A DNA stretch of 10,660 bases, from IMG/VR virus record IMGVR_UViG_2695420540_000012, one strand, 5' to 3'. The number at the start of each line of letters is the position of its first letter. Position 1 is the first letter of the stretch. Below, piece after piece: positions 1-10,660 of the stretch. The DNA is from a virus. Its lineage: Duplodnaviria > Heunggongvirae > Uroviricota > Caudoviricetes. The position numbers were made by a program, and so were the translations under genes. The notes under the pieces were generated by a model. The model did no database searches, was not told the DNA's origin, and worked only from the letters and a program-made list of their open reading frames with translations.

Positions 1-31
1 TACACTAAATCAGTAAGTTGGCAGCATCACC
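1..31 (-). mobile_element. IS1 terminal fragment (insA-proximal inverted-repeat end); body of element lies upstream of the window
   Basis: Bases 1-31 (tacactaaatcagtaagttggcagcatcacc) are identical to the last 31 bp of the complete IS1 copy at 4513-4543. Confidence 0.85.
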
Positions 32-32
32 C

Positions 33-143
33 CGCCACAGAACAATTATTGCTTTTGCCGTTGATGACAATAAAGTTTTTATCGCAGGCGTATACCACGG
101 TGGGCAAATCTATGAAACCGATTTTTTATCCAGTGCACCGTAA
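33..143 (+). pseudogene. 3' fragment of a RelE/ParE-superfamily-like toxin gene, 5' end removed by IS1
   Basis: Open frame starts directly at the IS1 boundary with no start codon and encodes RHRTIIAFAVDDNKVFIAGVYHGGQIYETDFLSSAP then stop (taa 141-143). The hydrophobic strand, turn, strand pattern resembles toxin C-termini, including the intact toxin at 9400-9690 (ILYRVTASSIEVVNIVHSRRQY). Assignment is by pattern only. Confidence 0.3.
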
Positions 144-183
144 AACCCCCATCCTTCAGGGCGTGGCGGATATCAAACTTTGG

Positions 184-1266
184 TCATTTTCTCTGGCTGA
201 TCTTTACCGGATAACCATCCCGAAGATCAATTAAGTGCTCCGGTTCAGAAGCAAACCATGCATAAGATCCCCACGCCAATTCTGGTATTGCCTTTTTAAA
301 AGGCAGAGCACTTCTGTCCATAAATGCCGTAAGGAATGCAAGATTTTTCTCGCTGAACCCAGCGTCAATAGCCAAATGAGTGAGAGTAACTTTTCGTTCC
401 CTGTTTATAGGCCCATCTGTCGCAACTACTTCAGTGAAAACTACAAGCATGTCCGAACCCGTTCGGTCCTCTCCCAAATCAATCAAAATAATATCTGGAA
501 GTGCTTTTGAGGCATCAATATTCAGCCCCAATGCTTTTGCCAATACATCATCCTGAGCAACAACTTTATTCCCGGATTCAGACAACCAGAGCACAGTTGG
601 ATTCTTAAGAAAATTAGGAGCAAAAACTTCGATGACGGCCTTAGCTATTGTACTTGACGGGCCCGGAGCTAAAGTTCTCTTCTCTCCATTTGGGAAAGTG
701 ACGACTACGGCATCAGCAGCAATCACTGCCCCTGATTTCAATAAACGCAACCTAGCAAGAGCGGCTTTGTTCAAATGATTTTCTTGCCAGGAACTTATTG
801 CACTCAGCAGCGAATCTCCTTCAAGCCCGGCATCAAAGAGTGCTGCAAAAGAGCGATTCAAACTGTAACGAGGACGAGAGGATGTGGTGGGTATACCTTT
901 ACGCTCAACAATTGCATTGCAAGGTATTAGGCCATTTTTTATAGTTTCATCACGTATTGGCTCACGCGTATTTTCCGCATACCATGCATCAGCAGGCCTT
1001 ATCTTTTGTTTAGAGAAAGTCATCTTTACCCAGCTTTCTCTGGACGCATCATCAGTAAGAGCAGCCTGCGAATCTCCCATACTTACAACCTGGCTGGGCC
1101 TTATCCATCGCCCCAGCCCCTCAACCGCACCAGCATAAAACATGACAAAAATTGTTTTTGCAGCTATTTCCCGAATTAAATATCCACGATTCTCAGTCCC
1201 TTCAGGGAAAATTAATTGTAATCTTTCCCGGATAACATTCAATGGGGGAACAACAGGCAGATTCAT
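184..1266 (-). CDS. Putative Type II restriction endonuclease (360 aa), partner of the upstream methyltransferase; possibly BsuBI/PstI-like
   Basis: Its ATG overlaps the methyltransferase stop in an ATGA overlap at 1263-1266, the classic coupled M then R arrangement. Contains a PD...EVV segment (ALPDIILIDLG...MLVVFTEVVATDG) reminiscent of a PD-(D/E)xK core, but the canonical lysine is not where expected. Family assignment is recollection, not a search. Confidence 0.5.
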   Translation of the reverse strand: MNLPVVPPLNVIRERLQLIFPEGTENRGYLIREIAAKTIFVMFYAGAVEGLGRWIRPSQVVSMGDSQAALTDDASRESWVKMTFSKQKIRPADAWYAENTREPIRDETIKNGLIPCNAIVERKGIPTTSSRPRYSLNRSFAALFDAGLEGDSLLSAISSWQENHLNKAALARLRLLKSGAVIAADAVVVTFPNGEKRTLAPGPSSTIAKAVIEVFAPNFLKNPTVLWLSESGNKVVAQDDVLAKALGLNIDASKALPDIILIDLGEDRTGSDMLVVFTEVVATDGPINRERKVTLTHLAIDAGFSEKNLAFLTAFMDRSALPFKKAIPELAWGSYAWFASEPEHLIDLRDGYPVKISQRK

Positions 1267-3095
1267 GCAATCATCACTCCATAGAAACCAGCGATAGTTC
1301 TCTCAATAATCCGTCTGTGGACGCCAGCATCAATTAACGATTGAATCTCCATCACCTGCTCCAGAGAAGGCAACGGGATTGAATTCAATTCATAGGCCGA
1401 AACAGCAACACTTCCGCTTATACACCTGAACGCCCGATCGACAACATGCGAATTAAGTAGCATATCAATAACATCAGGGCGAACCGCAGAGAACAATCCG
1501 TTTGAATATACAATATTAATATGGTTTTCAACTACTACGCCACCAGTTTCATCTATAAATCCCTGAGGTAAAATTGCCGCTAAAATCCTTCTGTCCTGTT
1601 CCTTCGATGTTGTCCGCTGAACAAGCACACATTCAGATTTTGTCACAAGGAAACCCTGTTGTGGGGTTATATCGATATAGGGAACATGATTTTTTCTGTC
1701 TGCACTAAAACGAAAACCAGCTGAAGTTATTGATTCCGCCCAGACTAATGGGTAGCTATTTTTTCCTTTCGTCGTACGCAACTGCGACTTAAATCGATTC
1801 CAGACTAACTGACCTGTAGAGACTGAGTATCCCAGATCAGCTAAACGCGTAGACATCTGTTTTAATACATTAAGAAAACAGGCATCATCTTTAACGCGTG
1901 GCAAAAGCCACGTTGCTCCACCTTTTTCTATATCAACATTACCTATTTTCTCAATTTTTGCTTTGTTCAACCCCTTAGGGACAAGTGAGGATACCTGGGC
2001 CCGAACTTTATGTTCTCCCGCCTTGAATGCTGTCAACATTGTTTCCTGGAGAACATCGTCAAAGACCCCATCCCTGTCAGTGACGAAATCAAGGGCATAC
2101 GGAGTAGTTTTTTCGGTCAAAAGGGTTCGCAGCGCGGTGAAATACTGCCCACCAAGAAAAGAAGTTGGCGTAAGAAATGCAATAACTCCTGTTTTCTCTT
2201 TAACCATGCGAACAGCTAAGTCGGTGAACAATCCATATAGATTTGCATGACCAAATAACGAACGAGAATATTTTTCTCTCGTTTTAATATCGAGAGTGAC
2301 ACGTCCGTAAGGCGGATTCCCTACCACAAGATCATAACCAGAAAATTTATCTTGCTGAAGCGCATCAGCAACAATAATTGTATCTTCAGGCAATCTACGT
2401 TTTACCTTTACACATAGTGGCATTAGTACAGATTCGAGCAATACCAAACTCATCCAAGCCGCAAATGGATCGATTTCTATCCCCTTTAAACGACGACTGA
2501 TTCTCCTCAACATCCATTCAGGGGAAGACCCCTTGTCTTTTTTTAACATTCGAATGGCTACTGGTGCCAAAAATGCACCGCCACCACACGCAGGATCAAT
2601 AACCGATGCATGAGAAAAATCAACACCAGACTTTTCAGCCAGGTCCAAGAGACGCGCTACCAAAGGTGGGGGGGTATAGTAAGCCCCCAATTCCGAACGG
2701 TAAGCGGATGGCAGCATTACCGTATAAATTGACCCAATCAGATATCCAGCGTCCTCCGCCGGAAATTGAGCAATAAGCTCACCTGTTCGTTCAGCGAGCT
2801 CGCGTGCATCACATGGAATGTCTTCTATGTAAACAGTGTGCGGTACTGCCCTCATTTTAATGCTGCTTTTTTGCTTTTTTGCAAGGGTATCCCAATATGC
2901 AGCTACGATGCTGAAGCAGTATGAGCGGGCATGCATCAACCTTGACTGCCCGGTTTTGTAATTGCCCGCATAACCTTTGGCCATGGCTTTACAAGTTTGA
3001 TATCTTTCCAGATTAGAAAACTCATTATCTGTAAAAAAATCAAAATGTTGCACATTCATAATGTAAAATCCTAATGTATCAAACATGCGGGCCAT
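1263..3095 (-). CDS. N6-adenine DNA methyltransferase, gamma-class, Eco57I/N6_Mtase-like (610 aa)
   Basis: Motif X-like GAYYTPPPLV, motif I VIDPACGGGAFL, motif IV VVGNPPYG in gamma-class order, followed by about 340 aa of probable target-recognition domain. Start is ambiguous: ATG at 3095 has no Shine-Dalgarno, and in-frame ATGs lie at about 3083 and 3059. Confidence 0.85.
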   Translation of the reverse strand: MARMFDTLGFYIMNVQHFDFFTDNEFSNLERYQTCKAMAKGYAGNYKTGQSRLMHARSYCFSIVAAYWDTLAKKQKSSIKMRAVPHTVYIEDIPCDARELAERTGELIAQFPAEDAGYLIGSIYTVMLPSAYRSELGAYYTPPPLVARLLDLAEKSGVDFSHASVIDPACGGGAFLAPVAIRMLKKDKGSSPEWMLRRISRRLKGIEIDPFAAWMSLVLLESVLMPLCVKVKRRLPEDTIIVADALQQDKFSGYDLVVGNPPYGRVTLDIKTREKYSRSLFGHANLYGLFTDLAVRMVKEKTGVIAFLTPTSFLGGQYFTALRTLLTEKTTPYALDFVTDRDGVFDDVLQETMLTAFKAGEHKVRAQVSSLVPKGLNKAKIEKIGNVDIEKGGATWLLPRVKDDACFLNVLKQMSTRLADLGYSVSTGQLVWNRFKSQLRTTKGKNSYPLVWAESITSAGFRFSADRKNHVPYIDITPQQGFLVTKSECVLVQRTTSKEQDRRILAAILPQGFIDETGGVVVENHINIVYSNGLFSAVRPDVIDMLLNSHVVDRAFRCISGSVAVSAYELNSIPLPSLEQVMEIQSLIDAGVHRRIIERTIAGFYGVMIA

Positions 3096-3154
3096 AACAT
3101 CTCATGGTGGCGCATAGCAAACTGGCCCGAAGAATATCACGCACCAAGTCGATC

Positions 3155-3170
3155 TCATAACCCGTTATGA
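3155..3170. promoter_or_regulatory. Perfect 7-2-7 palindrome TCATAAC-CC-GTTATGA in the methyltransferase upstream region; candidate operator
   Basis: Exact inverted repeat about 60 bp upstream of the methyltransferase start. A 2-nt spacer is too tight for an RNA hairpin, so a dimeric protein binding site is more likely. Confidence 0.3.
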
Positions 3171-3309
3171 CAATAAATCTTTGTAGCTGAACTCACTTGG
3201 TGATTTGTCAATCATTCCTGGCCTCCAGTTCGTCCTGAATCTCTTTATCGAGTTCACCGTATTTGTTAGTCCTCATCACTCACGACTTGACTTCCAGAAA
3301 TAACCTTGA

Positions 3310-3666
3310 TTATTCGGGGCTATATTTTGTCACCCTGCGTATCCGCGCTTTCGCATTACGCTCAATCTGGATTAGCTTTTCTATATTTTTTCGCCTTTCC
3401 CGCTCCTCCTGGCGCAAGAGCCTTACATCATCTGCCAGTCTGGTTTCTCTTTTCGCCACAGAGAGCATCCAGTCAAATGGCTCCACAACTGCACCGCAAA
3501 TTTTACAGCGGACCTGACGCTCTTTTTCGTCAACCCGGACAGAAGCGTGATGGCAATATGGTCTTTCCGATGGCTCATAAAGAAAATTAACCTGATTACG
3601 AGGGTTATCCTCTTTTACCGGAAATAAAACAATATTGCTTAACTCATCTTCTGGTTTTATTTCCAT
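3310..3666 (-). CDS. Hypothetical small zinc-ribbon protein with basic coiled-coil-like C-terminus (118 aa)
   Basis: Strong Shine-Dalgarno (AAGGAGAGGAGC) directly upstream of the ATG at 3664-3666. Cys/His cluster C-HH...C-x2-C, then an Arg/Glu-rich tail (RLLRQEERERRKNIEKLIQIERNAKARIRR). No family recognised. Confidence 0.6.
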   Translation of the reverse strand: MEIKPEDELSNIVLFPVKEDNPRNQVNFLYEPSERPYCHHASVRVDEKERQVRCKICGAVVEPFDWMLSVAKRETRLADDVRLLRQEERERRKNIEKLIQIERNAKARIRRVTKYSPE

Positions 3667-3723
3667 GCTCCTCTCCTTTGATGCGAATGCCAGCGGTAAT
3701 TGAAGCCTGATAGCTAATTTCAC

Positions 3724-3766
3724 TCACAGTACCGCCTCCTGAAAATCACCCTGATAGAAACAGAAG
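3724..3766 (-). pseudogene. 3' remnant of a paralogue of the hypothetical gene at 4616-5146, cut off by Ns and IS1
   Basis: Minus-strand reading gives ...FYQGDFQEAVL then stop, matching the C-terminus ...AFYQGNFQKVLL of the 4616-5146 gene. Nucleotide similarity continues through the downstream intergenic region (3661-3760 versus 4575-4653). Confidence 0.45.
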
Positions 3767-3790
3767 NNNNNNNNNGGTAATGACTCCAAC

Positions 3791-4294
3791 TTATTGATAG
3801 TGTTTTATGTTCAGATAATGCCCGATGACTTTGTCATGCAGCTCCACCGATTTTGAGAACGACAGCGACTTCCGTCCCAGCCGTGCCAGGTGCTGCCTCA
3901 GATTCAGGTTATGCCGCTCAATTCGCTGCGTATATCGCTTGCTGATTACGTGCAGCTTTCCCTTCAGGCGGGATTCATACAGCGGCCAGCCATCCGTCAT
4001 CCATATCACCACGTCAAAGGGTGACAGCAGGCTCATAAGACGCCCCAGCGTCGCCATAGTGCGTTCACCGAATACGTGCGCAACAACCGTCTTCCGGAGA
4101 CTGTCATACGCGTAAAACAGCCAGCGCTGGCGCGATTTAGCCCCGACATAGCCCCACTGTTCGTCCATTTCCGCGCAGACGATGACGTCACTGCCCGGCT
4201 GTATGCGCGAGGTTACCGACTGCGGCCTGAGTTTTTTAAGTGACGTAAAATCGTGTTGAGGCCAACGCCCATAATGCGTGCAGTTGCCCGGCAT
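3791..4294 (-). CDS. insB: IS1 InsB frame (expressed as InsAB' transposase by -1 frameshift)
   Basis: 167-aa frame (...[42 protein letters not shown]...) overlapping the insA 3' end at the A6C site. Confidence 0.9.
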
Positions 4295-4488
4295 CCAACG
4301 CCATTCATGGCCATATCAATGATTTTCTGGTGCGTACCGGGTTGAGAAGCGGTGTAAGTGAACTGCAGTTGCCATGTTTTACGGCAGTGAGAGCAGAGAT
4401 AGCGCTGATGTCCGGCAGTGCTTTTGCCGTTACGCACCACCCCGTCAGTAGCTGAACAGGAGGGACAGCTGATAGAAACAGAAGCCAC
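4213..4488 (-). CDS. insA: IS1 InsA (transposition inhibitor, N-terminal part of the InsAB' transposase)
   Basis: 91 aa beginning [24 protein letters not shown], the canonical InsA zinc-finger/HTH protein, with a GTG start. Confidence 0.95.
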
Positions 4489-4615
4489 TGGAGCACCTCA
4501 AAAACACCATCATACACTAAATCAGTAAGTTGGCAGCATCACCACAGTGCTGAACTTAATTATTCAGATTTTGGATTATGCTTTCTCTTCACGAAGTTCC
4601 GATTGTTAATTTGGC

Positions 4616-5146
4616 TCACAACAGCACCTTCTGAAAATTACCCTGATAGAAAGCCAGTACACGCTGCATAGCTTCGCTCTTCCGGCACTCGCTACAGATT
4701 ATGTTTTGACGCCTGTCGTAGCGGCGTATTTCTCCGTCTGGTAATGACCAGATAAGGTCCGGATCAACCACAGATGGTTTCTTCAGCTTTGCCCTCGAGA
4801 GTTTTTTGCGGGCGTTTTGCCAGTCCTTACGAGCCTGTTCAGACGGGAATAACCCGTANNNNNNNNNNNNNNNNNNNNNNNNNNNNNNNNNNNNNNNNNN
4901 NNNNNNNNNNNNNNNNNNNNNNNNNNNNNNNNNNNNNNNNNNNNNNNNNNNNNNNNNNNNNNNNNNNCCAGAGTTGTATACATCGCCACTGGCAACCAGC
5001 TCTCTGGCGAGAACACTCATCAGATATCTTGTCGCACCTGTCTTGGCTTCCAGTTGCCGCAACGTCTCGCGACCGCTCAGACGTACAAGTTCAACAACCT
5101 GCCCCTTAATTTTTTCCCGCTCTTCCTGTGTAAATACTTTTGCCAT
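4616..5146 (-). CDS. Hypothetical prophage protein, middle masked by Ns (4859-4967)
   Basis: Frame is maintained across the N run. N-terminus MAKVFTQEEREKIKGQVVELVRLSGRETLRQLEAKTGATRYLMSVLARELV is helix-turn-helix-like; C-terminus contains CSECRKSE. Starts 15 nt after the stop of the upstream gene. Confidence 0.5.
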   Translation of the reverse strand: MAKVFTQEEREKIKGQVVELVRLSGRETLRQLEAKTGATRYLMSVLARELVASGDVYNSXXXXXXXXXXXXXXXXXXXXXXXXXXXXXXXXXXXXXYGLFPSEQARKDWQNARKKLSRAKLKKPSVVDPDLIWSLPDGEIRRYDRRQNIICSECRKSEAMQRVLAFYQGNFQKVLL

Positions 5147-5161
5147 AAGCGCCCCCGGCAA

Positions 5162-5887
5162 TCACTTTTCCGACACAATACGACCGGAGGAATCGACAAT
5201 CTGTCGAACAATATCCCGGTGCTTGTTCAGCTCCCGCAACGCGGCGCAGACACGCTCCCACTTCTGGACATGACTTTTCGCCCGACGCAGTTCGCGGTTT
5301 GCCATATGCAGCGATGGTAAAACCAGGTCATCCGCTTGCGTTTCGGTGAACGATGGCAACGACTGCACAATGTCCGCCACAGTTTCTGTTTTAATTTCTT
5401 CCTGTGTTGCAGCTTCCTGTACCGGTAACGCAACACCTGCTGGCTGAGGAAAGACTTTACCATCCGTTTCCGCTATGGATGCGGCTTTCGGCTCTGCCGG
5501 TAAATCAGCGCCCGGTATGCAGTACCGAAATTTACCGCCCTGATTCACGCGAATCAGACGCCCTTTGCTGATTGCCATGGCCAGCGATGAATTCGCCCGG
5601 CGGGAGGTAATCCCGAACATCAGTGCCAGCTCATCCGCCGTTTGTGGGCCATGTTGTTCAATCGCCTCAGTCAGCATTTGCGCTGTCACTTTCGGTACCG
5701 GTGACACTGGTTCACTTTCACCAGCCTGAATCAGCCACCACATCGAACCCTTGTTATCCGCTTCACCACGGCGCTTCAGTTTCCACAGTTCGTTGACCGC
5801 ATCTTCACGGCTGATTCCAAGGCGGGACGCCACCACATGTGAAGAGGCTCTTTTCAGTGCTTTCAGTGCGTCAAATACAGTTTCCAT
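5162..5887 (-). CDS. Hypothetical prophage protein with two winged-helix-like segments (241 aa from the GGAGG-supported ATG)
   Basis: GGAGG lies 8 nt upstream of the ATG at 5885-5887. Helix-turn-helix-like segments [27 protein letters not shown] and [29 protein letters not shown]. No family assigned. Confidence 0.5.
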
Positions 5888-5908
5888 TAAAACATCCTCC
5901 AACAAAAA

Positions 5909-6300
5909 TTACTTCACAACTCCCGGAAAGCTGACATTTGAACGCCAGCTATCCCAGTTAAACGTCACCCACCGACAACCGTTCATGGTCATGCGGTCCA
6001 TAATCCTCTCACCAAGAAGCGTGCTCATTGCGGCATGATTCAGGTTTGTTAACATCCCGACACTGCACAGTGATGCTGTCCGGCGATCAATTATCTGGTG
6101 CAATACCACCTGCTCGTTTTTCGTCTCCCGCTGAATGCCTATTTCATCCAGGACCAGCAAATCAACCCCGCAAAGCTCCTGTAAAAATTTTTCACCGGAT
6201 TTGCCGTTGTCGTAGCTGTCATGCAACACGCTCATGACATCAGACTCGGTGACGATAATCACGCTGCGCCCCTTCGCCATCAGCCGGTTACCCATCGCCG
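5909..6300 (-). CDS. DnaC-like helicase loader (IstB-like AAA+), C-terminal part only; N-terminal part hidden in Ns
   Basis: KGRSVIIVTESDVMS...LLVLDEIGIQRETKNEQVVLHQIIDRRTASLCSVGMLTNLNHAAMSTLLGERIMDRMTMNGCRWVTFNWDSWRS aligns closely with the E. coli DnaC / Rac YdaV C-terminal half as remembered, including Walker B (DEIG). Walker A would lie in the masked region. Confidence 0.85.
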
Positions 6301-6777
6301 NNNNNNNNNNNNNNNNNNNNNNNNNNNNNNNNNNNNNNNNNNNNNNNNNNNNNNNNNNNNNNNNNNNNNNNNNNNNNNNNNNNNNNNNNNNNNNNNNNNN
6401 NNNNNNNNNNNNNNNNNNNNNNNNNNNNNNNNNNNNNNNNNNNNNNNNNNNNNNNNNNNNNNNNNNNNNNNNNNNNNNNNNNNNNNNNNNNNNNNNNNNN
6501 NNNNNNNNNNNNNNNNNNNNNNNNNNNNNNNNNNNNNNNNNNNNNNNNNNNNNNNNNNNNNNNNNNNNNNNNNNNNNNNNNNNNNNNNNNNNNNNNNNNN
6601 NNNNNNNNNNNNNNNNNNNNNNNNNNNNNNNNNNNNNNNNNNNTCCACCGNNNNNNNNNNNNNNNNNNNNNNNNNNNNNNNNNNNNNNNNNNNNNNNNNN
6701 NNNNNNNNNNNNNNNNNNNNNNNNNNNNNNNNNNNNNNNNNNNNNNNNNNNNNNNNNNNNNNNNNNNNNNNNNNNNN

Positions 6778-7817
6778 TCGGTATCCGGTTCAGAAATATG
6801 ATTCACACAACGCTGGTTGTTCGTGCCGCTTACCGGGAGCAACCAGGGGTTTTCAAAATTCCGGTCCGGCCCAAAAAACGTCGTCGCTCGCTGAACAAAT
6901 TCCGTTCCCGCTTTCCCGGTCGCCGCCAGGTATCTCGCGTAACGCCTCACACCATCCAGCATGGTCTCTGGTGGCACCCCCTCGCGCAATCTGGCCTTCC
7001 AGGCACTGAATGCGGATTTCTTCGGGTTTGCCCCGGCACGCAACGGGTATTCCCGCCAGACCTGTTCGAACACATCCGGATAATCCACTCGTCCCACAGG
7101 CTGCCCGGTGTTTTCCGGGGCTACCCGATCGGCTTCCCGCTGAATGGCGGAATCGGCTTCAGGCTGCTGCAGTTGGAGTGATTGCTCCGGCCTTGCGGTC
7201 ATCACCTGCTGCACAGCGCCCGAATCGGCTTTCAGCGCATACGCTGAATCGGCTTCCGGTGTCGAGCCTGCTGGCTGACCAGGATTGACGGTCTGAACAT
7301 CCCCTGCCTGGTTCGTGGCGTTTTTTACGCCATGGACCATAGTGTTTTGATCTTCTTTATCTGTATCTTTATCTGTATCTGTCGTGACTCGTCGTGACAT
7401 GTGCGTGACATTTCGTGACGCGCCGTGACAATCGCCATTTTGTTCCCGCTTTCTTTCCCTCTCTCGCTGCGCCCTCTTGCGCTCTGCAGGAGATTTTGCG
7501 GTTTGCGAAATATTGCCGTTGTCCTCTTTAAGCACCTGGCGTTTTTCCCATCCAGTGATTAAATCACCATCAAGTACCCGCCCCTGCATCGTCTGCAAAA
7601 TTGAATCAATTACCTCTTCTGTCACGTCGAGCGCACTTGCCAAATCTTCTGTCGTGACATCAATGTGACCTCGCGTGACATTTCGTGACGCGCTCACCAG
7701 GAGGTGGATATACACTGCCATCACTGTTGCAATTGGCTGCCCTGACACCCTGGCAATTGTTCGCCACTTAGGGTCATTTGGCATGTCATGCCATAATCTG
7801 AGCCAGGCGTTAGCCAT
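6778..7817 (-). CDS. Putative phage replication initiator / replisome organiser (O-like), 3' end hidden in Ns
   Basis: Shine-Dalgarno GAGGTGA 4 nt upstream of the ATG at 7815-7817. Lies directly upstream of the DnaC-like gene and contains two iteron clusters, as lambda O contains ori. The six-frame track runs this frame through the N block to 6288, but the true stop is not visible. Confidence 0.6.
7356..7379. repeat. Tandem 12-bp direct repeat (tttatctgtatc x2) next to iteron cluster A
   Basis: Exact tandem duplication at 7356-7367 and 7368-7379, followed immediately by the first CGTGAC iteron. Confidence 0.7.
7383..7429. repeat. Iteron cluster A: five CGTGAC copies at 10-11 bp phasing (candidate ori)
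   Basis: CGTGAC at 7383, 7393, 7404, 7414 and 7424. Includes the first copy of a 21-bp exact direct repeat GCGTGACATTTCGTGACGCGC (7403-7423). Confidence 0.65.
7653..7693. repeat. Iteron cluster B: four (C/T)GTGAC copies at 10-11 bp phasing (candidate ori)
   Basis: CGTGAC/TGTGAC at 7653, 7664, 7674 and 7684, plus an inverted GTCACG at 7621. Includes the second copy of the 21-bp repeat (7673-7693). Confidence 0.65.
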
Positions 7818-7888
7818 ACTCACCTCTTCTGATACCGAATCTTTTTACTCACGAGTTGCCGGGAGCGATTCGATATGGCTATTGTCAG

Positions 7889-8314
7889 TCAATGTACTGC
7901 CACAGCATTTCCTGCCGGGCCACCACGGTTCATCTGATTGAAACCGGCGATTGCCACTGCGACAAAATCATCAGCGTCTCTCACCAGTCGTTCATGCGTC
8001 TCCACCAGTTCCCGAAAATAAGCTGAACTGTGGCTGCGCATTCGAGCCACCAGCGGAGGTGGCATTGCCCTTTCGATCGCAGGTAACAACGCCTGAATTT
8101 TTTCAACAGCGTCAGGGGTGTCTTTATCCAGCCAACGGAAAATCTTTTGGGTGTTGAGATAAAGCGTGTTGTGCTTGCTGTCGTTATGCAGAACCGGAAA
8201 CGTCATTCCCAGTTCGAAATAAACCCTGGTTATTTCAGCTGCCGGAACTTTTTCACCGTCCGGATGCGCCCAGGCTTTCATCGCCATGCGGATGTGTTCA
8301 TGCTTGATTTTCAT
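7889..8314 (-). CDS. CII-like / YdaT-family prophage regulator (141 aa)
   Basis: N-terminus MKIKHEHI matches what I recall of Rac YdaT. Its ATG overlaps the stop of the upstream Cro-like gene in an ATGA overlap at 8311-8314, and it sits between the Cro-like and initiator genes as in Rac (ydaS-ydaT-ydaU-ydaV). Confidence 0.55.
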   Translation of the reverse strand: MKIKHEHIRMAMKAWAHPDGEKVPAAEITRVYFELGMTFPVLHNDSKHNTLYLNTQKIFRWLDKDTPDAVEKIQALLPAIERAMPPPLVARMRSHSSAYFRELVETHERLVRDADDFVAVAIAGFNQMNRGGPAGNAVAVH

Positions 8315-8574
8315 GAATCAACCCCCGCCGATGGTTGTGTGTTAGCCTGAAACTCAGCAGGCAAGCCGTCAGTTGGGTTGGGGTAGGTTTTACTGTCAAT
8401 CTCATGTGGGGTCACCACCCATCCCGTTGCTTCACACCAACGTAATATTTTTTCTCCTGTAAGTTTTGCACGCCCCGTTATAACGTGGCTGACCATCCCT
8501 TGGGATGCGCCAACAATCTCAGCAAATGAACTCTGGGTTATATGAAAATGATGCAAATATTCTCCAAGATTCAT
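8311..8574 (-). CDS. Cro-like HTH regulator (YdaS/Cro family), 87 aa from the ATG at 8572-8574
   Basis: Helix-turn-helix ITQSSFAEIVGASQGMVSHVITGRAKLTGEKI. Transcribed divergently from the repressor across the operator region. The track's longer ORF begins at a TTG (8601); the ATG has a GGGCGG purine patch upstream. Confidence 0.7.
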   Translation of the reverse strand: MNLGEYLHHFHITQSSFAEIVGASQGMVSHVITGRAKLTGEKILRWCEATGWVVTPHEIDSKTYPNPTDGLPAEFQANTQPSAGVDS

Positions 8575-8610
8575 AATCCGCCCTATGTGATGTGTTACCA
8601 ATGCATAATT

Positions 8611-8650
8611 AATAGCACTGTTATTTTTAAAAGTAAATAGTGATGCTATT
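8611..8650. promoter_or_regulatory. OR-like operator pair with divergent promoters
   Basis: Two 15-bp imperfect palindromes, AATAGCACTGTTATT (8611-8625) and AATAGTGATGCTATT (8636-8650), consensus AATAGC-N3-GCTATT. On the minus strand TTTACT (-35-like) and TATTAAT (-10-like) overlap them. Confidence 0.6.
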
Positions 8651-8685
8651 TCAAAGTGATTAGCAATCTTATTAGAATTGGATGT

Positions 8686-9186
8686 ATGAAAAGAAAATCA
8701 TTGTCAGACACCGACCTCAACGCCGCCAGAAGACTGAAAGAAATCTGGATGGCAAAGAAATCTCAGTTGGGATTGACTCAGGAACGTGCGGCGGAAATTA
8801 TGGGGTTTTCAACACAAGGGGCGGTAAGTCACTACCTAAATGGTCAAACCCCACTAAACCTTGAGGCTGTTCTAAAGTTTGCTGGCTTACTGAAAGTTCC
8901 CCCTGAGTCAATCAGGCCAGACATGGTAGATTTGCTGCAAATTGCAAGGATGTATTGTCGAGAACCACAGCAAGATAACATAGTCGCATTACCAGCAGAC
9001 ACAGAACAAACAGAGGATGAACTACCGTTTGCCGTAGAGCCGATGGAACGAGATTTAATCCATACGTTCAGAGCTTTTCCGAAAGAAGATCAAGAACACA
9101 TGCTTCAGGAGATGAAAGATAAAAAAGAATCAATGGATCGTACGGTTGCGCGGTGGTTAGCTGCACAAAAAGGCCGTCGCGCCTAA
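8686..9186 (+). CDS. Prophage repressor, XRE/CI-type HTH (RacR/CI analogue); start could instead be GTG at 8656
   Basis: Helix-turn-helix LGLTQERAAEIMGFSTQGAVSHYLNGQ. Sits divergent to the Cro-like gene. No LexA/S24-type G-x-S-M ... K peptidase motif is visible in the C-terminal half. Confidence 0.7.
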   Translation: MKRKSLSDTDLNAARRLKEIWMAKKSQLGLTQERAAEIMGFSTQGAVSHYLNGQTPLNLEAVLKFAGLLKVPPESIRPDMVDLLQIARMYCREPQQDNIVALPADTEQTEDELPFAVEPMERDLIHTFRAFPKEDQEHMLQEMKDKKESMDRTVARWLAAQKGRRA

Positions 9187-9205
9187 ATCAGAGGAGATAT
9201 GTAAA

Positions 9206-9400
9206 ATGAGTACAGTCCTTTCCCCAATGGTTTCAGAATTTGAGACAGTTGAGCAAGAAAATAGTTACAACGAATGGCTGCGGGCCAAAGTAGCAGCAAG
9301 CCTCGCGGATCCCCGCCCGGCGATTCCGCATGATGAGGTAATGGCGGAAATGGAACAAATTATTGCCCAAATTGCTGCTGCAACTCACAGAGGTGAATAA
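9206..9400 (+). CDS. Putative type II antitoxin (ParD-type partner of the ParE/RelE toxin), 64 aa
   Basis: Shine-Dalgarno GAGGAG 9 nt upstream. Small acidic protein whose TAA stop overlaps the toxin ATG (TAATG at 9398-9402). Family assignment is by context and general resemblance only. Confidence 0.55.
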   Translation: MSTVLSPMVSEFETVEQENSYNEWLRAKVAASLADPRPAIPHDEVMAEMEQIIAQIAAATHRGE

Positions 9401-9690
9401 TGTTACCCGTTTTATGGCTACCATCTGCTCGTGATGATTTGCGCCAGATCGTAGCCTACATAGCTAAAGAAAATCCCGCGGCAGCACGCAGAATGAAAAT
9501 TCGAATTGAAACATCCGTTTTGCCGCTCACAGAGCATCCTTACCTGTATCCTCCAAGCGAGCGAGTTCTTGGTCTTCGTGAAATTGTAACTCATCCTAAC
9601 TACATCATCCTTTACCGAGTAACAGCATCAAGCATAGAAGTAGTAAATATTGTGCATTCTCGAAGACAGTATCCAGGCAAAAACAGTTAA
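9400..9690 (+). CDS. ParE/RelE-family type II toxin (96 aa)
   Basis: Family-typical pattern: N-terminal DDLRQIVAYIAKENPAAARRM and C-terminal LREIVTHPNYIILYRVTASSIEVVNIVHSRRQY. Translationally coupled to the upstream antitoxin. Confidence 0.75.
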   Translation: MLPVLWLPSARDDLRQIVAYIAKENPAAARRMKIRIETSVLPLTEHPYLYPPSERVLGLREIVTHPNYIILYRVTASSIEVVNIVHSRRQYPGKNS

Positions 9691-9706
9691 TTATTCCCGC
9701 CGACAG

Positions 9707-9728
9707 AACCACCTTAGGGTGGTTTTTT
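9707..9728 (+). terminator. Rho-independent terminator after the repressor/antitoxin/toxin genes
   Basis: Stem AACCACC / GGTGGTT with loop TTAG, followed by a six-T run. Confidence 0.6.
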
Positions 9729-9746
9729 CTTGCCCCAACAAAAAAC

Positions 9747-9787
9747 AATAGCGATGCTATTTACATCAAAAAAATAATGATGCTATT
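9747..9787. promoter_or_regulatory. OL-like operator pair with a rightward promoter
   Basis: AATAGCGATGCTATT (9747-9761, perfect 6-3-6 palindrome) and AATAATGATGCTATT (9773-9787), same consensus as the 8611-8650 pair. TTTACA (9760-9765) and TATTGT (9784-9789) with an 18-bp spacer overlap them. Confidence 0.55.
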
Positions 9788-9968
9788 GTTTCAGGCGTCA
9801 ACCCACCCCGCCCCACAGAATGCAGGGCAATACTTCGAGTTACCAGACAGTGGTCAGGGGTTAAGTAGCCAGCCCGAGGCGTAAGAACATGACGGCAGGG
9901 TTCAATCTTTAACTATGCAGCAGGTTTTTTGTTCCGCCACCCCGGCGTTAAGGGGAAATGAGGTCAGC

Positions 9969-10121
9969 ATGGATACTATCGATCTTGGCAACAACGAATC
10001 TCTGGTGTGCGGCGTGTTCCCTAACCAGGATGGAACGTTTACCGCCATGACGTATACCAAAAGCAAAACGTTTAAAACCGAATCTGGCGCGCGTTGCTGG
10101 TTAGCCAGAAACACTGACTGA
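9969..10121 (+). CDS. Small prophage early protein (50 aa), Rac YdaG/YdaF-like
   Basis: GAGG 7 nt upstream of the ATG. MDTIDLGNNESLVCGVFPNQDGTFTAMTYTKSKTFK resembles what I recall of the small Rac proteins next to racR. Confidence 0.5.
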   Translation: MDTIDLGNNESLVCGVFPNQDGTFTAMTYTKSKTFKTESGARCWLARNTD

Positions 10122-10132
10122 TGAGGCTGACG

Positions 10133-10498
10133 ATGGAATTTAAAGATTTACCGTCTGATGTACAGAAAACAGCAGCTCATACATTGCATTCTGTGCTGCG
10201 AGAAATCGGGAAAGATATTGCAAGCGAGCCAGCAAAAGATCTGGCCCGGAAAATCAAGACCGCTTTCGTTGAGCTTTATAATGTTGGCACTGACTCTGAA
10301 ACTGTCGAGACCAAGACCGTAAGTTCACCAATATTCTCACTTGAGCCAAGCGTATTATCAGGTGAAATATGCACCGAGATTTCCAGCGAACTGCTTCCGG
10401 TAATACGAGAAGCAATTCGCCGTCGCGGTTTGGATGGAAGTTATGATCATGACGTTCTGCAAGTTCTCAGGACAATGGTGACTTCACTGGGGATTTGA
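10133..10498 (+). CDS. Hypothetical prophage protein (121 aa from MEFKDL)
   Basis: GAGG 7 nt upstream of the ATG at 10133. Acidic, no recognisable motifs. An alternative ATG at 10121 overlaps the upstream stop. Confidence 0.45.
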   Translation: MEFKDLPSDVQKTAAHTLHSVLREIGKDIASEPAKDLARKIKTAFVELYNVGTDSETVETKTVSSPIFSLEPSVLSGEICTEISSELLPVIREAIRRRGLDGSYDHDVLQVLRTMVTSLGI

Positions 10499-10630
10499 TC
10501 CCTGCGTCCTCTAAGCTTTTGATATAGCGGTCCTCCAAGAAGCGGTAAATTTTGTCGAAATCATCTTTTCCCTCTGGTTTATTCAGAGGATTACAGGACC
10601 CGTAAGTAGCGGCATACATTTCAACCGTTT

Positions 10631-10660
10631 GGTAATGACTCCAACTTATTGATAGTGTTT
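10631..10660 (-). mobile_element. IS1 start (insB-proximal inverted-repeat end), same orientation as the other two copies; element continues beyond the window
   Basis: Bases 10631-10660 are identical to 3776-3805 (ggtaatgactccaacttattgatagtgttt). Confidence 0.85.

Follow-up and report, generated by a model that had tools for sequence, protein, structure and literature searches.

Lambdoid phages are modular mosaics in which, following Botstein's modular theory, exchange takes place at conserved boundary sequences between gene modules, and such boundary sequences have been described for HK620/HK97-type phages. Homology-facilitated illegitimate recombination, known from transformation of Acinetobacter and Pseudomonas stutzeri, uses one homologous anchor and 3-10 nt of microhomology at the other end. 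IS1-mediated adjacent deletion is known from the classical gal/chl deletions in E. coli. In Shigella, IS1 has expanded and IS elements are associated with structural variation; in S. sonnei the median number of IS insertions is 286, with IS1 as the largest contributor, and IS content varies between strains (Hawkey et al. 2020, PMC7373316).

The window analysed here is a stretch of 10,660 nt (IMG/VR record IMGVR_UViG_2695420540_000012) which, judged by its match to relatives, is an IS1-bounded Qin/Rac-like prophage remnant typical of Shigella sonnei. The same IS1-bounded remnant was present in every S. sonnei-type assembly fetched, with the canonical minus-strand order cI-cro-YdaT-O-DnaC-DUF1627-DUF977-Zn-ribbon-MTase-REase. 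Positions 1-3760 and 6778-10660 were 100% identical to one such remnant (L010), 5105-6300 and 6778-10660 were 100% identical to the canonical remnant with 6301-6777 unreadable, and all intact proteins of the window were the canonical S. sonnei ones. As in the Shigella IS1 expansion, where high-copy IS1 makes strain-specific junctions, deletions and pseudogenes, there are three IS1 copies in this 10.7 kb, all in direct orientation, and both outer IS1 junctions are common to S. sonnei-type assemblies. Unlike simple Shigella IS1 insertions, the central copy has non-contiguous flanks and its left joint appears to lie inside IS1 and not at a terminus. Two alleles of the DUF977 region meet here, the S. 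sonnei type (A) and a second type (B) from a different lambdoid lineage, represented by E. coli JB2 and ATCC 25922. The features are as follows.

1-31, minus strand: an outer IS1, represented by the 31 nt of its IRL end, identical to 4513-4543 and oriented as the central copy; same junction in L007-L016.
184-1266, minus strand: BsuBI/PstI-family restriction endonuclease (Pfam PF06616/PF17728).
1263-3095, minus strand: N6-adenine methyltransferase (Pfam PF02384/PF07669).
3310-3666, minus strand: putative zinc-ribbon gene, 118 aa, from its translation and a weak, sub-threshold Zn_Ribbon_TF match.
3667-3719, minus strand: A-type spacer from the DUF977 stop to the zinc-ribbon start, 100% identical to L010.
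3720-3760, minus strand: orphan 3' tail of the resident A-type DUF977 gene (stop and last 12-13 codons), the left repeat copy, 100% identical to L010 5907-5947.
3751-3766, plus strand: 16 nt identical to IS1-internal 4469-4484; present just twice in the window, against a chance expectation of none.
3767-3775, no strand: nine N left over from assembly, a gap that conceals the left IS1 junction together with any target-site duplication.
3776-4543, minus strand: central IS1, 768 bp, 100% identical to the IS1 copies in L011 and L012.
4544-4615, minus strand: B-type spacer downstream of DUF977, 72 nt, identical to JB2 (L003) 3001-3071 except for one T-run indel.
4616-5146, minus strand: mosaic DUF977 gene, Pfam PF06163 in both halves, with a 109-N gap at 4859-4967; right repeat copy at 4593-4652.
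5162-5887, minus strand: DUF1627 gene, identical to L010 and in canonical contexts.
10631-10660, minus strand: the other outer IS1, represented by its first 30 nt (IRR end), identical to 3776-3805; same junction in L007-L016.

The restriction-modification genes keep the same order in L001, L002 and L007-L016 and are physically joined to the left-hand (A) flank type in every relative, as the sequence-only reading of this DNA had supposed when it assigned the cargo to the left-hand backbone. The exact 118-aa zinc-ribbon protein carries the name Shigella sonnei and was found on at least 999 contigs, and the A-type spacer likewise lies upstream of the zinc-ribbon gene in ATCC 25922 (L004). A search for the gene order free of IS1, which that reading had proposed, found DUF977 and the zinc-ribbon gene contiguous and the central IS1 absent in S. 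sonnei-type L007-L016 and L020-L028, that is, in all 19 contexts shown from the 65 S. sonnei-type contigs read. The cargo, the zinc-ribbon gene and the remainder of the remnant are canonical and unaffected. We also considered whether the canonical order could have arisen from the window type by deletion between the repeats; this was rejected, as the canonical gene has A-specific bases at the equivalents of 4656-4712 that are missing in both window copies.

The similarity reported between the two sides of the central IS1 is real at its core. Positions 3702-3760 and 4593-4652 were 81% identical over 52-60 nt, with a local score of 67.5 against 17.1 +/- 3.5 for shuffles (about 14 standard deviations above, reached by 0 of 3000 shuffles), and the repeat is not low-complexity sequence. 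Each of these direct copies spans the final 13 codons of a DUF977-family gene (LygF in the annotation of Rac-type phage records), its stop and about 20 nt beyond, and the encoded C-termini are ...FYQGDFQEAVL (stop) on the left and ...LAFYQGNFQKVLL (stop) on the right. The similar stretches are the tail ends of two different versions of the DUF977 gene, and the repeat is its conserved 3' end, a module boundary in Rac/Qin-like lambdoid prophages. The left remnant is in the correct frame, translating as the end of the L010 protein to its stop codon, and is 100% identical to the A allele. Identity to every relative ends exactly at 3760, and by this comparison the left copy is a fragment and not a gene, only 41 nt of the resident allele surviving.

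The homology had also been traced through the zinc-ribbon start (3661-3701 against 4575-4592, with an indel of about 20 bp), and this extension did not hold up: its score was reached by 1.5% of shuffles with lenient gap costs, and by 13% when gap costs were ordinary and the comparison was with the intact B-type spacer. That the B-type spacer keeps a vestige of the zinc-ribbon start was accordingly rejected as not significant against shuffles, and the proposed change of the start codon from ATG to ATA is not significant either. The stretch containing the ATA (4544-4712) is identical to the E. coli JB2 B-type spacer except for one T-run indel. Coverage of 4544-4858 reaches at least 80% in 1114 E. 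coli records, the best of them 98.4% identical, and in the two loci examined the gene that follows is a 70-aa ORF instead of the zinc-ribbon gene. The ATA is therefore not a fresh start-codon mutation in this window. A local duplication of the DUF977 tail and spacer, with divergence and then partial deletion, had been offered as one origin of the arrangement and would give two direct copies, here 892 nt apart. However, the two copies differ by 19% in the midst of DNA that is everywhere 100% identical to relatives, and each corresponds to its own, separate pre-existing allele, either perfectly or with a single indel; these allele matches effectively refute a duplication, which we consider exceedingly improbable.

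As in lambdoid mosaicism, homology among relatives starts or ends at the DUF977 3' end and the 20 nt or so beyond it: homology to the window stops at 3696 for L002 and at 3746 for L004; for L001 and L010 it continues into DUF977. The C-termini of DUF977 homologues vary after AFYQGN, and the modules downstream are restriction-modification and zinc-ribbon genes in some backbones and 70-aa/DUF4014 genes in others. Judged by where homology breaks among these relatives, exchange occurs naturally at the 3' end of DUF977, a joint of the lambdoid mosaic. Unlike ordinary mosaicism, the window holds both boundary versions in one locus with IS1 between them, and no clean replacement.

To the right of the central IS1, the 72-nt spacer and DUF977 gave a contiguous 97.4% match to JB2 when one G replaced the 109-N gap. 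The two DUF977 halves matched PF06163 positions 1-58 and 62-134 (36.8 and 61.9 bits, gathering cutoff 22.1) with only profile positions 59-61 missing; the right-hand gene is interrupted by the N gap only. A real 36-codon insertion under the 109 N was discarded as a candidate, since DUF977 homologues of 176-178 aa proved to be C-terminal fusions and the halves abut on the Pfam profile. A scan of informative sites resolved the allele blocks as B at 4594-4712, A at 4760-4832, B at 4985-5087 and A from 5105 (22 B, 4 A, 16 B, then at least 33 A sites, with no private sites), giving switches at 4712/4760, 4832/4985 and 5087/5105. The resident A-type backbone resumes from 5105, just upstream of the DUF1627 gene. 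On these allele assignments, only about 0.55 kb (4544-5087) is foreign, in a patchy B-A-gap-B pattern, and not a whole second backbone.

This bears directly on the sequence-only reading of two backbones. Spelt out, that reading has two different prophage backbones linked by a full-length IS1, with IS1 x IS1 recombination or an IS1-mediated adjacent deletion as the route, and everything rightward would belong to the second. Part of it stands: the flanks of the central IS1 are non-contiguous in every relative and are of different allele types, both natural, and the three IS1 copies are directly oriented. The second backbone itself does not, as the right side from 5105 is the same canonical remnant as the left, apart from the unreadable 6301-6777; such a backbone could differ from the first in 0.55 kb only. 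Beyond DUF977 the B-type prophage of JB2 is 84-93% identical to the canonical remnant. We regard a junction of two backbones as improbable.

The central IS1 itself was confirmed at 3776-4543. It has the expected length of about 768 bp, imperfect terminal inverted repeats of about 23 bp (GGTAATGACTCCAACTTATTGAT and, as reverse complement, GGTGATGCTGCCAACTTACTGAT) that match at 18 of 23 positions, insA at 4213-4488 (Pfam PF03811 and PF12759, zinc ribbon plus HTH) and insB' at 3791-4294 (Pfam PF03400, DDE), with the A6C frameshift motif TTAAAAAAC on the minus strand near 4233-4241; repeats and motif were read off the sequence itself. An 8-10 bp target-site duplication with contiguous empty-site flanks was not seen, the nine left bases being N. 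In addition, the CAGAAG that precedes these N (3761-3766) matches no A-type or B-type relative: it fits neither the B-type empty site, with TTATTT before ACAGTGCTG, nor the A-type gene, with GCCGGT. A simple IS1 insertion is excluded by this mismatch, a point that also favours the joining of two backbones.

On its right side IS1 ends base-precisely at the B-type spacer, 34 nt upstream of the expected start of the B-type 70-aa gene. This resembles IS1-mediated adjacent deletion, in that the IRL end (4543) meets unrelated DNA at a precise point, with no matching duplication to be seen. In an adjacent deletion, however, the other flank runs uninterrupted to the terminus, and resident sequence should reach the IS1 end; here resident identity stops 15 nt short and the bases that follow are IS1-internal-like. 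The last 16 readable bases before the 9-N gap are identical to IS1-internal sequence, and the first 10 nt of 3751-3766, CTGATAGAAA, are common to the DUF977 tail and the start of IS1 insA. The IS1-internal identity at this edge suggests a putative join at the 10-nt microhomology.

Comparison with near-identical relatives gave lengths that differ from those of the N runs: 109 N take the place of 1 nt, 343 N of 269 nt and 127 N of 110 nt. The same genes contain N runs in the S. sonnei-type draft scaffolds L019 and L023; in L023 one gap edge lies within 1 nt of window position 6778, where 377 N stand for 240 nt, and L019 strings two DUF977 copies together across N runs. Judged by these lengths, the N runs in the window are assembly gaps of unreliable length; that they are length-faithful masks is ruled out by the mismatches and by the same behaviour in S. 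sonnei-type drafts. The 9 N are likewise an assembly gap, and the left IS1 junction is therefore unverified.

These gaps open a further explanation, namely that a canonical remnant and a separate B-type prophage with an IS1 by its DUF977 spacer were threaded together via a consensus IS1 during scaffolding or gap filling. The anomalous block 3776-4858 has N runs at both sides, their lengths are not faithful, the other drafts are gapped in the same genes, and one of them also joins two DUF977 copies over N runs. Moreover, the mosaic lacks private substitutions, the inferred mosaic DUF977 protein was absent from about 15 billion proteins, and closing 9 nt between an IS1 terminus and unique sequence should be trivial if the two were truly adjacent. 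The full-length IS1 copy may, under a recombination account as well, be a gap filler's walk through a repeat. Against such a chimera, the 5087/5105 switch and the join of 3760 to CAGAAG lie inside contiguous sequence, over distances below the usual k-mer; the canonical A locus should continue with GCCGGTACACG after 3760 and not with CAGAAG; and the IS1-terminus/B-spacer junction is base-precise. Real molecules probably carry the B-to-A switch at 5087/5105, because it falls within 18 nt of contiguous sequence, shorter than the usual assembly k-mer. We treat a scaffolding chimera as a tangible possibility, though less likely than not.

The two DUF977 tails were probably brought together by ordinary recombination in an IS1-rich S. 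sonnei-type remnant, and we give about an even chance to the explanation that a short B-type patch recombined into the resident remnant of this isolate. The patch would have come from a second, B-type lambdoid prophage or phage, the putative donor, either resident in the same cell or arriving as phage DNA. Most of DUF977 would have been copied in, along with the 72-nt B-type spacer and sequence derived from IS1. The right-hand exchange would have been homologous and patchy, like gene conversion with mismatch repair, and on the left an illegitimate join at CTGATAGAAA would have linked the resident DUF977 tail to the insA start. Such a single event would leave behind the last 41 nt of the resident gene, hence the appearance of two diverged copies. 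Several findings weigh against a recombined patch: of the five critical joints, two lack continuous sequence (the 9-N left junction and the A-to-B switch across the 109-N gap), three allele switches in 500 nt are more than one simple crossover gives, the arrangement is unique among the genomes searched, and neither the mosaic protein nor a donor locus turned up in the collections covered. The join adjoins assembly gaps and may be partly an assembly artefact.

A more specific proposal is genuine homology-facilitated illegitimate recombination in Shigella, in which a foreign DUF977 allele and an IS1 fragment entered through a homologous anchor and the 10-nt insA microhomology. The patchy homologous right side fits the anchor, and 16 nt of IS1-internal identity, followed by N, suggest a microhomology joint at left. 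Unlike the Acinetobacter and P. stutzeri cases, the putative joint is read from one draft sequence that is gapped there, and we think this proposal rather unlikely. If it were true, IS1-internal sequence, beyond termini or whole-copy homology, would help to remodel prophage remnants.

The junction is an ordinary IS/recombination scar or a scaffold chimera, and as a scar it has no function of its own. Its significance is small beyond bookkeeping: the apparent signal of two backbones is explained by 0.55 kb of patched-in allele, sited at a mosaic boundary whose kind is already known, in a genome rich in IS1. Since the N runs are gaps of unreliable length, IS1 junctions and paralogous prophage genes in such drafts should not be read as rearrangements without read-level support.

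In GTDB representative genomes and JGI metagenomes the left junction (CACCCTGATAGAAACAGAAG) gave nothing but chance matches in unrelated organisms, the right junction had no match in IMG/VR, and nothing spanned either junction in 5426 complete E. coli genomes and phage records. No donor locus with IS1 at the B-type spacer was found in these searches; GCAGCATCACCACAGTGCTGAACTTAA can serve as a search sequence for such a locus. We also observed an IS1 near a DUF977 gene, at a different site, in STEC384 and STEC379.

The window starts with the last 31 nt of one IS1 (1-31), and at its other end stand the first 30 nt of a further copy (10631-10660). Since both ends lie inside IS1 copies, it is probably a whole scaffold. 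The three IS1 copies that it contains share one orientation. Read from right to left along the minus strand, the features are as follows.

Right-hand part, minus strand: cI/cro, YdaT, O-like replisome organiser, DnaC-like ATPase
5162-5887, minus strand: DUF1627 gene
4616-5146, minus strand: DUF977 gene, broken by 109 N
4544-4615: 72-nt spacer
3776-4543: central IS1, complete
3761-3775: 15 nt, 9 of them N
3720-3760: DUF977 tail, 41 nt
3667-3719: 53-nt spacer
3310-3666, minus strand: zinc-ribbon gene, 118 aa
1263-3095, minus strand: N6-adenine methyltransferase gene
184-1266, minus strand: BsuBI/PstI-family endonuclease gene

The zinc-ribbon and DUF1627 proteins are named Shigella sonnei or Shigella and occur in approximately 1000 or more contigs each. 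By looking up exact matches to them we found this IS1-bounded remnant in many NCBI assemblies (4.8-5.0 Mb). The DUF977 and zinc-ribbon genes are contiguous and the central IS1 is absent in each of the 19 contexts shown, from 65 contigs read. Positions 1-3760 and 6778-10660, including both outer IS1 junctions, are 100% identical to the S. sonnei-type locus L010, whose allele we call A. The allele of another lambdoid lineage, represented by E. coli JB2 (L003) and ATCC 25922 (L004), is called B.

The sequence-only reading held that the central IS1 joins two diverged copies of one backbone segment. The similarity of its flanks is real: 3702-3760 and 4593-4652 share ~81% identity, and their local score of 67.5 compares with 17.1 +/- 3.5 in shuffles. 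Each stretch consists of the coding sequence for a DUF977 C-terminus and ~20 nt beyond it; the left copy ends ...FYQGDFQEAVL* and the right copy ...LAFYQGNFQKVLL*. The proposed extension to the start of the zinc-ribbon gene, with an indel of about 20 bp and a change of ATG to ATA, is weak, as 1.5% of shuffles equal its score under lenient gap costs. The figure is 13% when the intact B-type spacer is compared under ordinary gap costs. Except for a single indel in a T run, 4544-4712 is the sequence of E. coli JB2, and at least 80% of 4544-4858 is covered in 1114 E. coli records (top identity 98.4%). The gene that follows in the two B-type loci inspected, those of JB2 and ATCC 25922, is an ORF of 70 aa and not the zinc-ribbon gene, and thus the ATA did not arise by recent mutation of a start codon. 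The repeat itself is a boundary between lambdoid modules.

We also compared the alleles to the right of the IS1 with L010 and JB2. All informative sites were either A or B, and none was private to the window.

Allele carried by the window to the right of the IS1
4594-4712: B, 22 informative sites
4760-4832: A, 4 informative sites
4859-4967: 109-N gap, no informative sites
4985-5087: B, 16 informative sites
5105 onward: A, 33 or more informative sites

With the gap replaced by a single G, the spacer and DUF977 gene form a contiguous match of 97.2-97.4% to JB2 and ATCC 25922-type prophages. Only ~0.55 kb is foreign; in the remainder of the right-hand side the backbone is that of the left, which contradicts the idea of two backbones. 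A recent duplication is excluded as the origin of the copies, given their 19% divergence and the fact that they match two separate existing alleles. Derivation of the canonical locus from the window by deletion between the repeats was likewise rejected, because the canonical locus has A-specific bases at the equivalents of 4656-4712 that are missing from both window copies. The assignment of the restriction-modification genes to the left-hand DUF977 tail was borne out: the intact prophage of E. coli FDAARGOS_943 has the order DUF977, zinc-ribbon, methyltransferase and endonuclease, as in the remnant.

The DUF977 3' end forms a natural boundary of mosaicism: homology to the window stops at 3696 in one relative (L002) and at 3746 in ATCC 25922, and C-termini are variable after AFYQGN. 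In ATCC 25922 (1750-2227), a natural B-type prophage, the zinc-ribbon gene lies ~0.9 kb further downstream, preceded by the A-type spacer and by a DUF977 tail (the last 9 codons' worth) fused in a different frame to a 47-aa ORF. Both versions of the boundary can thus coexist within one intact backbone.

By its length (768 bp), inverted repeats and ORFs, the central element qualifies as a bona fide IS1. It encodes InsA (PF03811, PF12759) and InsB' (PF03400) and is 100% identical to IS1 copies of two S. sonnei-type loci (L011 and L012). It does not show the target-site duplication and contiguous flanks of a simple insertion, which is ruled out since CAGAAG stands where the B-type target is TTATTT and the A-type target is GCCGGT. 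At the right junction, the IRL terminus (4543) adjoins ACAGTGCTG..., corresponding to JB2 position 3001, 34 nt upstream of the 70-aa gene start. On the left, identity to all relatives, S. sonnei type and E. coli, ends exactly at 3760, followed by CAGAAG and 9 N. Over 16 nt, 3751-3766 (CTGATAGAAACAGAAG) match IS1-internal positions 4469-4484 at the start of insA exactly; no such match would be expected by chance. Ten of the 16 (CTGATAGAAA) are common to the DUF977 tail, which points to entry of the left contig into the IS1 interior through the 10-nt microhomology. Neither junction was found elsewhere among the genomes and records searched. In E. coli STEC384 and STEC379, an IS1A copy lies near a DUF977 gene at a different site.

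The four N runs (3767-3775, 4859-4967, 6301-6643 and 6651-6777) disagree in length with near-identical relatives, as gaps left over in a scaffolded short-read assembly would. A-type and B-type relatives alike have 1 nt where the 109 N stand, and Pfam puts the DUF977 halves at profile positions 1-58 and 62-134. The runs of 343 and 127 N, separated by a 7-nt island (TCCACCG), match stretches of 269 and 110 nt in L010. ORFs called across N runs (such as those of 181 and 511 aa) are therefore artefacts. In two further S. sonnei-type draft scaffolds, L019 and L023, N runs interrupt these genes as well; a gap edge of L023 falls within 1 nt of window position 6778, and 240 nt are represented there by 377 N. 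Given this shared behaviour, the 9 N at 3767-3775 are a residual gap of which the N count does not give the true length, and the left IS1 junction is not read through. The full-length IS1 may be a gap-filling product that walked through the repeat up to its far terminus. In L019 (CXCS01000143.1, 2930-6033), DUF977 occurs twice: a fragment of 85 aa immediately follows the DnaC-like gene and a full copy of 141 aa follows DUF1627, the two being strung together across N runs that enclose a 69-nt island. This layout resembles the two copies in the window and bears on the possibility of an artefact.

The main rival explanation, possible if rather doubtful, is that the scaffold is a chimera which joins the canonical locus to a B-type prophage located separately. 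The comparable behaviour of L019, the gaps on either side of the anomalous block, the fact that neither junction turned up elsewhere, the lack of private substitutions and the absence of the inferred mosaic protein from ~15 billion proteins all favour it. A real event is supported by the B-to-A switch at 5087/5105 and the join of 3760 to CAGAAG, both in contiguous sequence over spans shorter than the usual k-mer, by the base-precise junction of IS1 end and spacer, and by the natural mosaic boundary at the DUF977 3' end. We consider recombination of a B-type patch into the resident remnant the best explanation, at about even confidence. The donor would be a B-type lambdoid prophage with an IS1 beside its DUF977 spacer, from which a short patch moved by homologous, patchy exchange on the DUF977 side and by an illegitimate join at the CTGATAGAAA microhomology on the other, while the resident DUF977 tail stayed in place as the left-hand copy. 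Such a mechanism would be akin to homology-facilitated illegitimate recombination, with the joint here lying in unsequenced bases. S. sonnei chromosomes carry a median of 286 IS insertions, to which IS1 contributes more than any other element, with marked variation between strains (PMC7373316). A scar of this kind is unremarkable. The case is one of IS-associated mosaicism in a prophage remnant, strain-specific or artefactual, and represents no novel type of system.

In addition, a toxin gene of the ParE/RelE family is cut short by the left outer IS1, with ~112 nt of its 3' end left (32-143); in E. coli FDAARGOS_943 this gene is intact and adjoins a ParD antitoxin beside the restriction-modification genes. 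In several chromosome-scale S. sonnei-type assemblies (L009, L012, L021, L024, L025 and L027), gene calling breaks the methyltransferase into two or three pieces but leaves the endonuclease intact (360 aa), which may reflect either homopolymer error of long-read assemblies or decay of the restriction-modification system. Direct-repeat clusters rich in GTGAC/CGTGAC within the O-like gene (7391-7429 with 7651-7689, and 7128-7163 with 7224-7259) are plausibly candidate origin iterons. Three copies of a ~23-nt motif containing ATAGTGATGCTATT (8629-8651, 9740-9762 and 9766-9788), around the cI/cro region and near a PaaA2-ParE pair (9206-9690), look like candidate operator sites.
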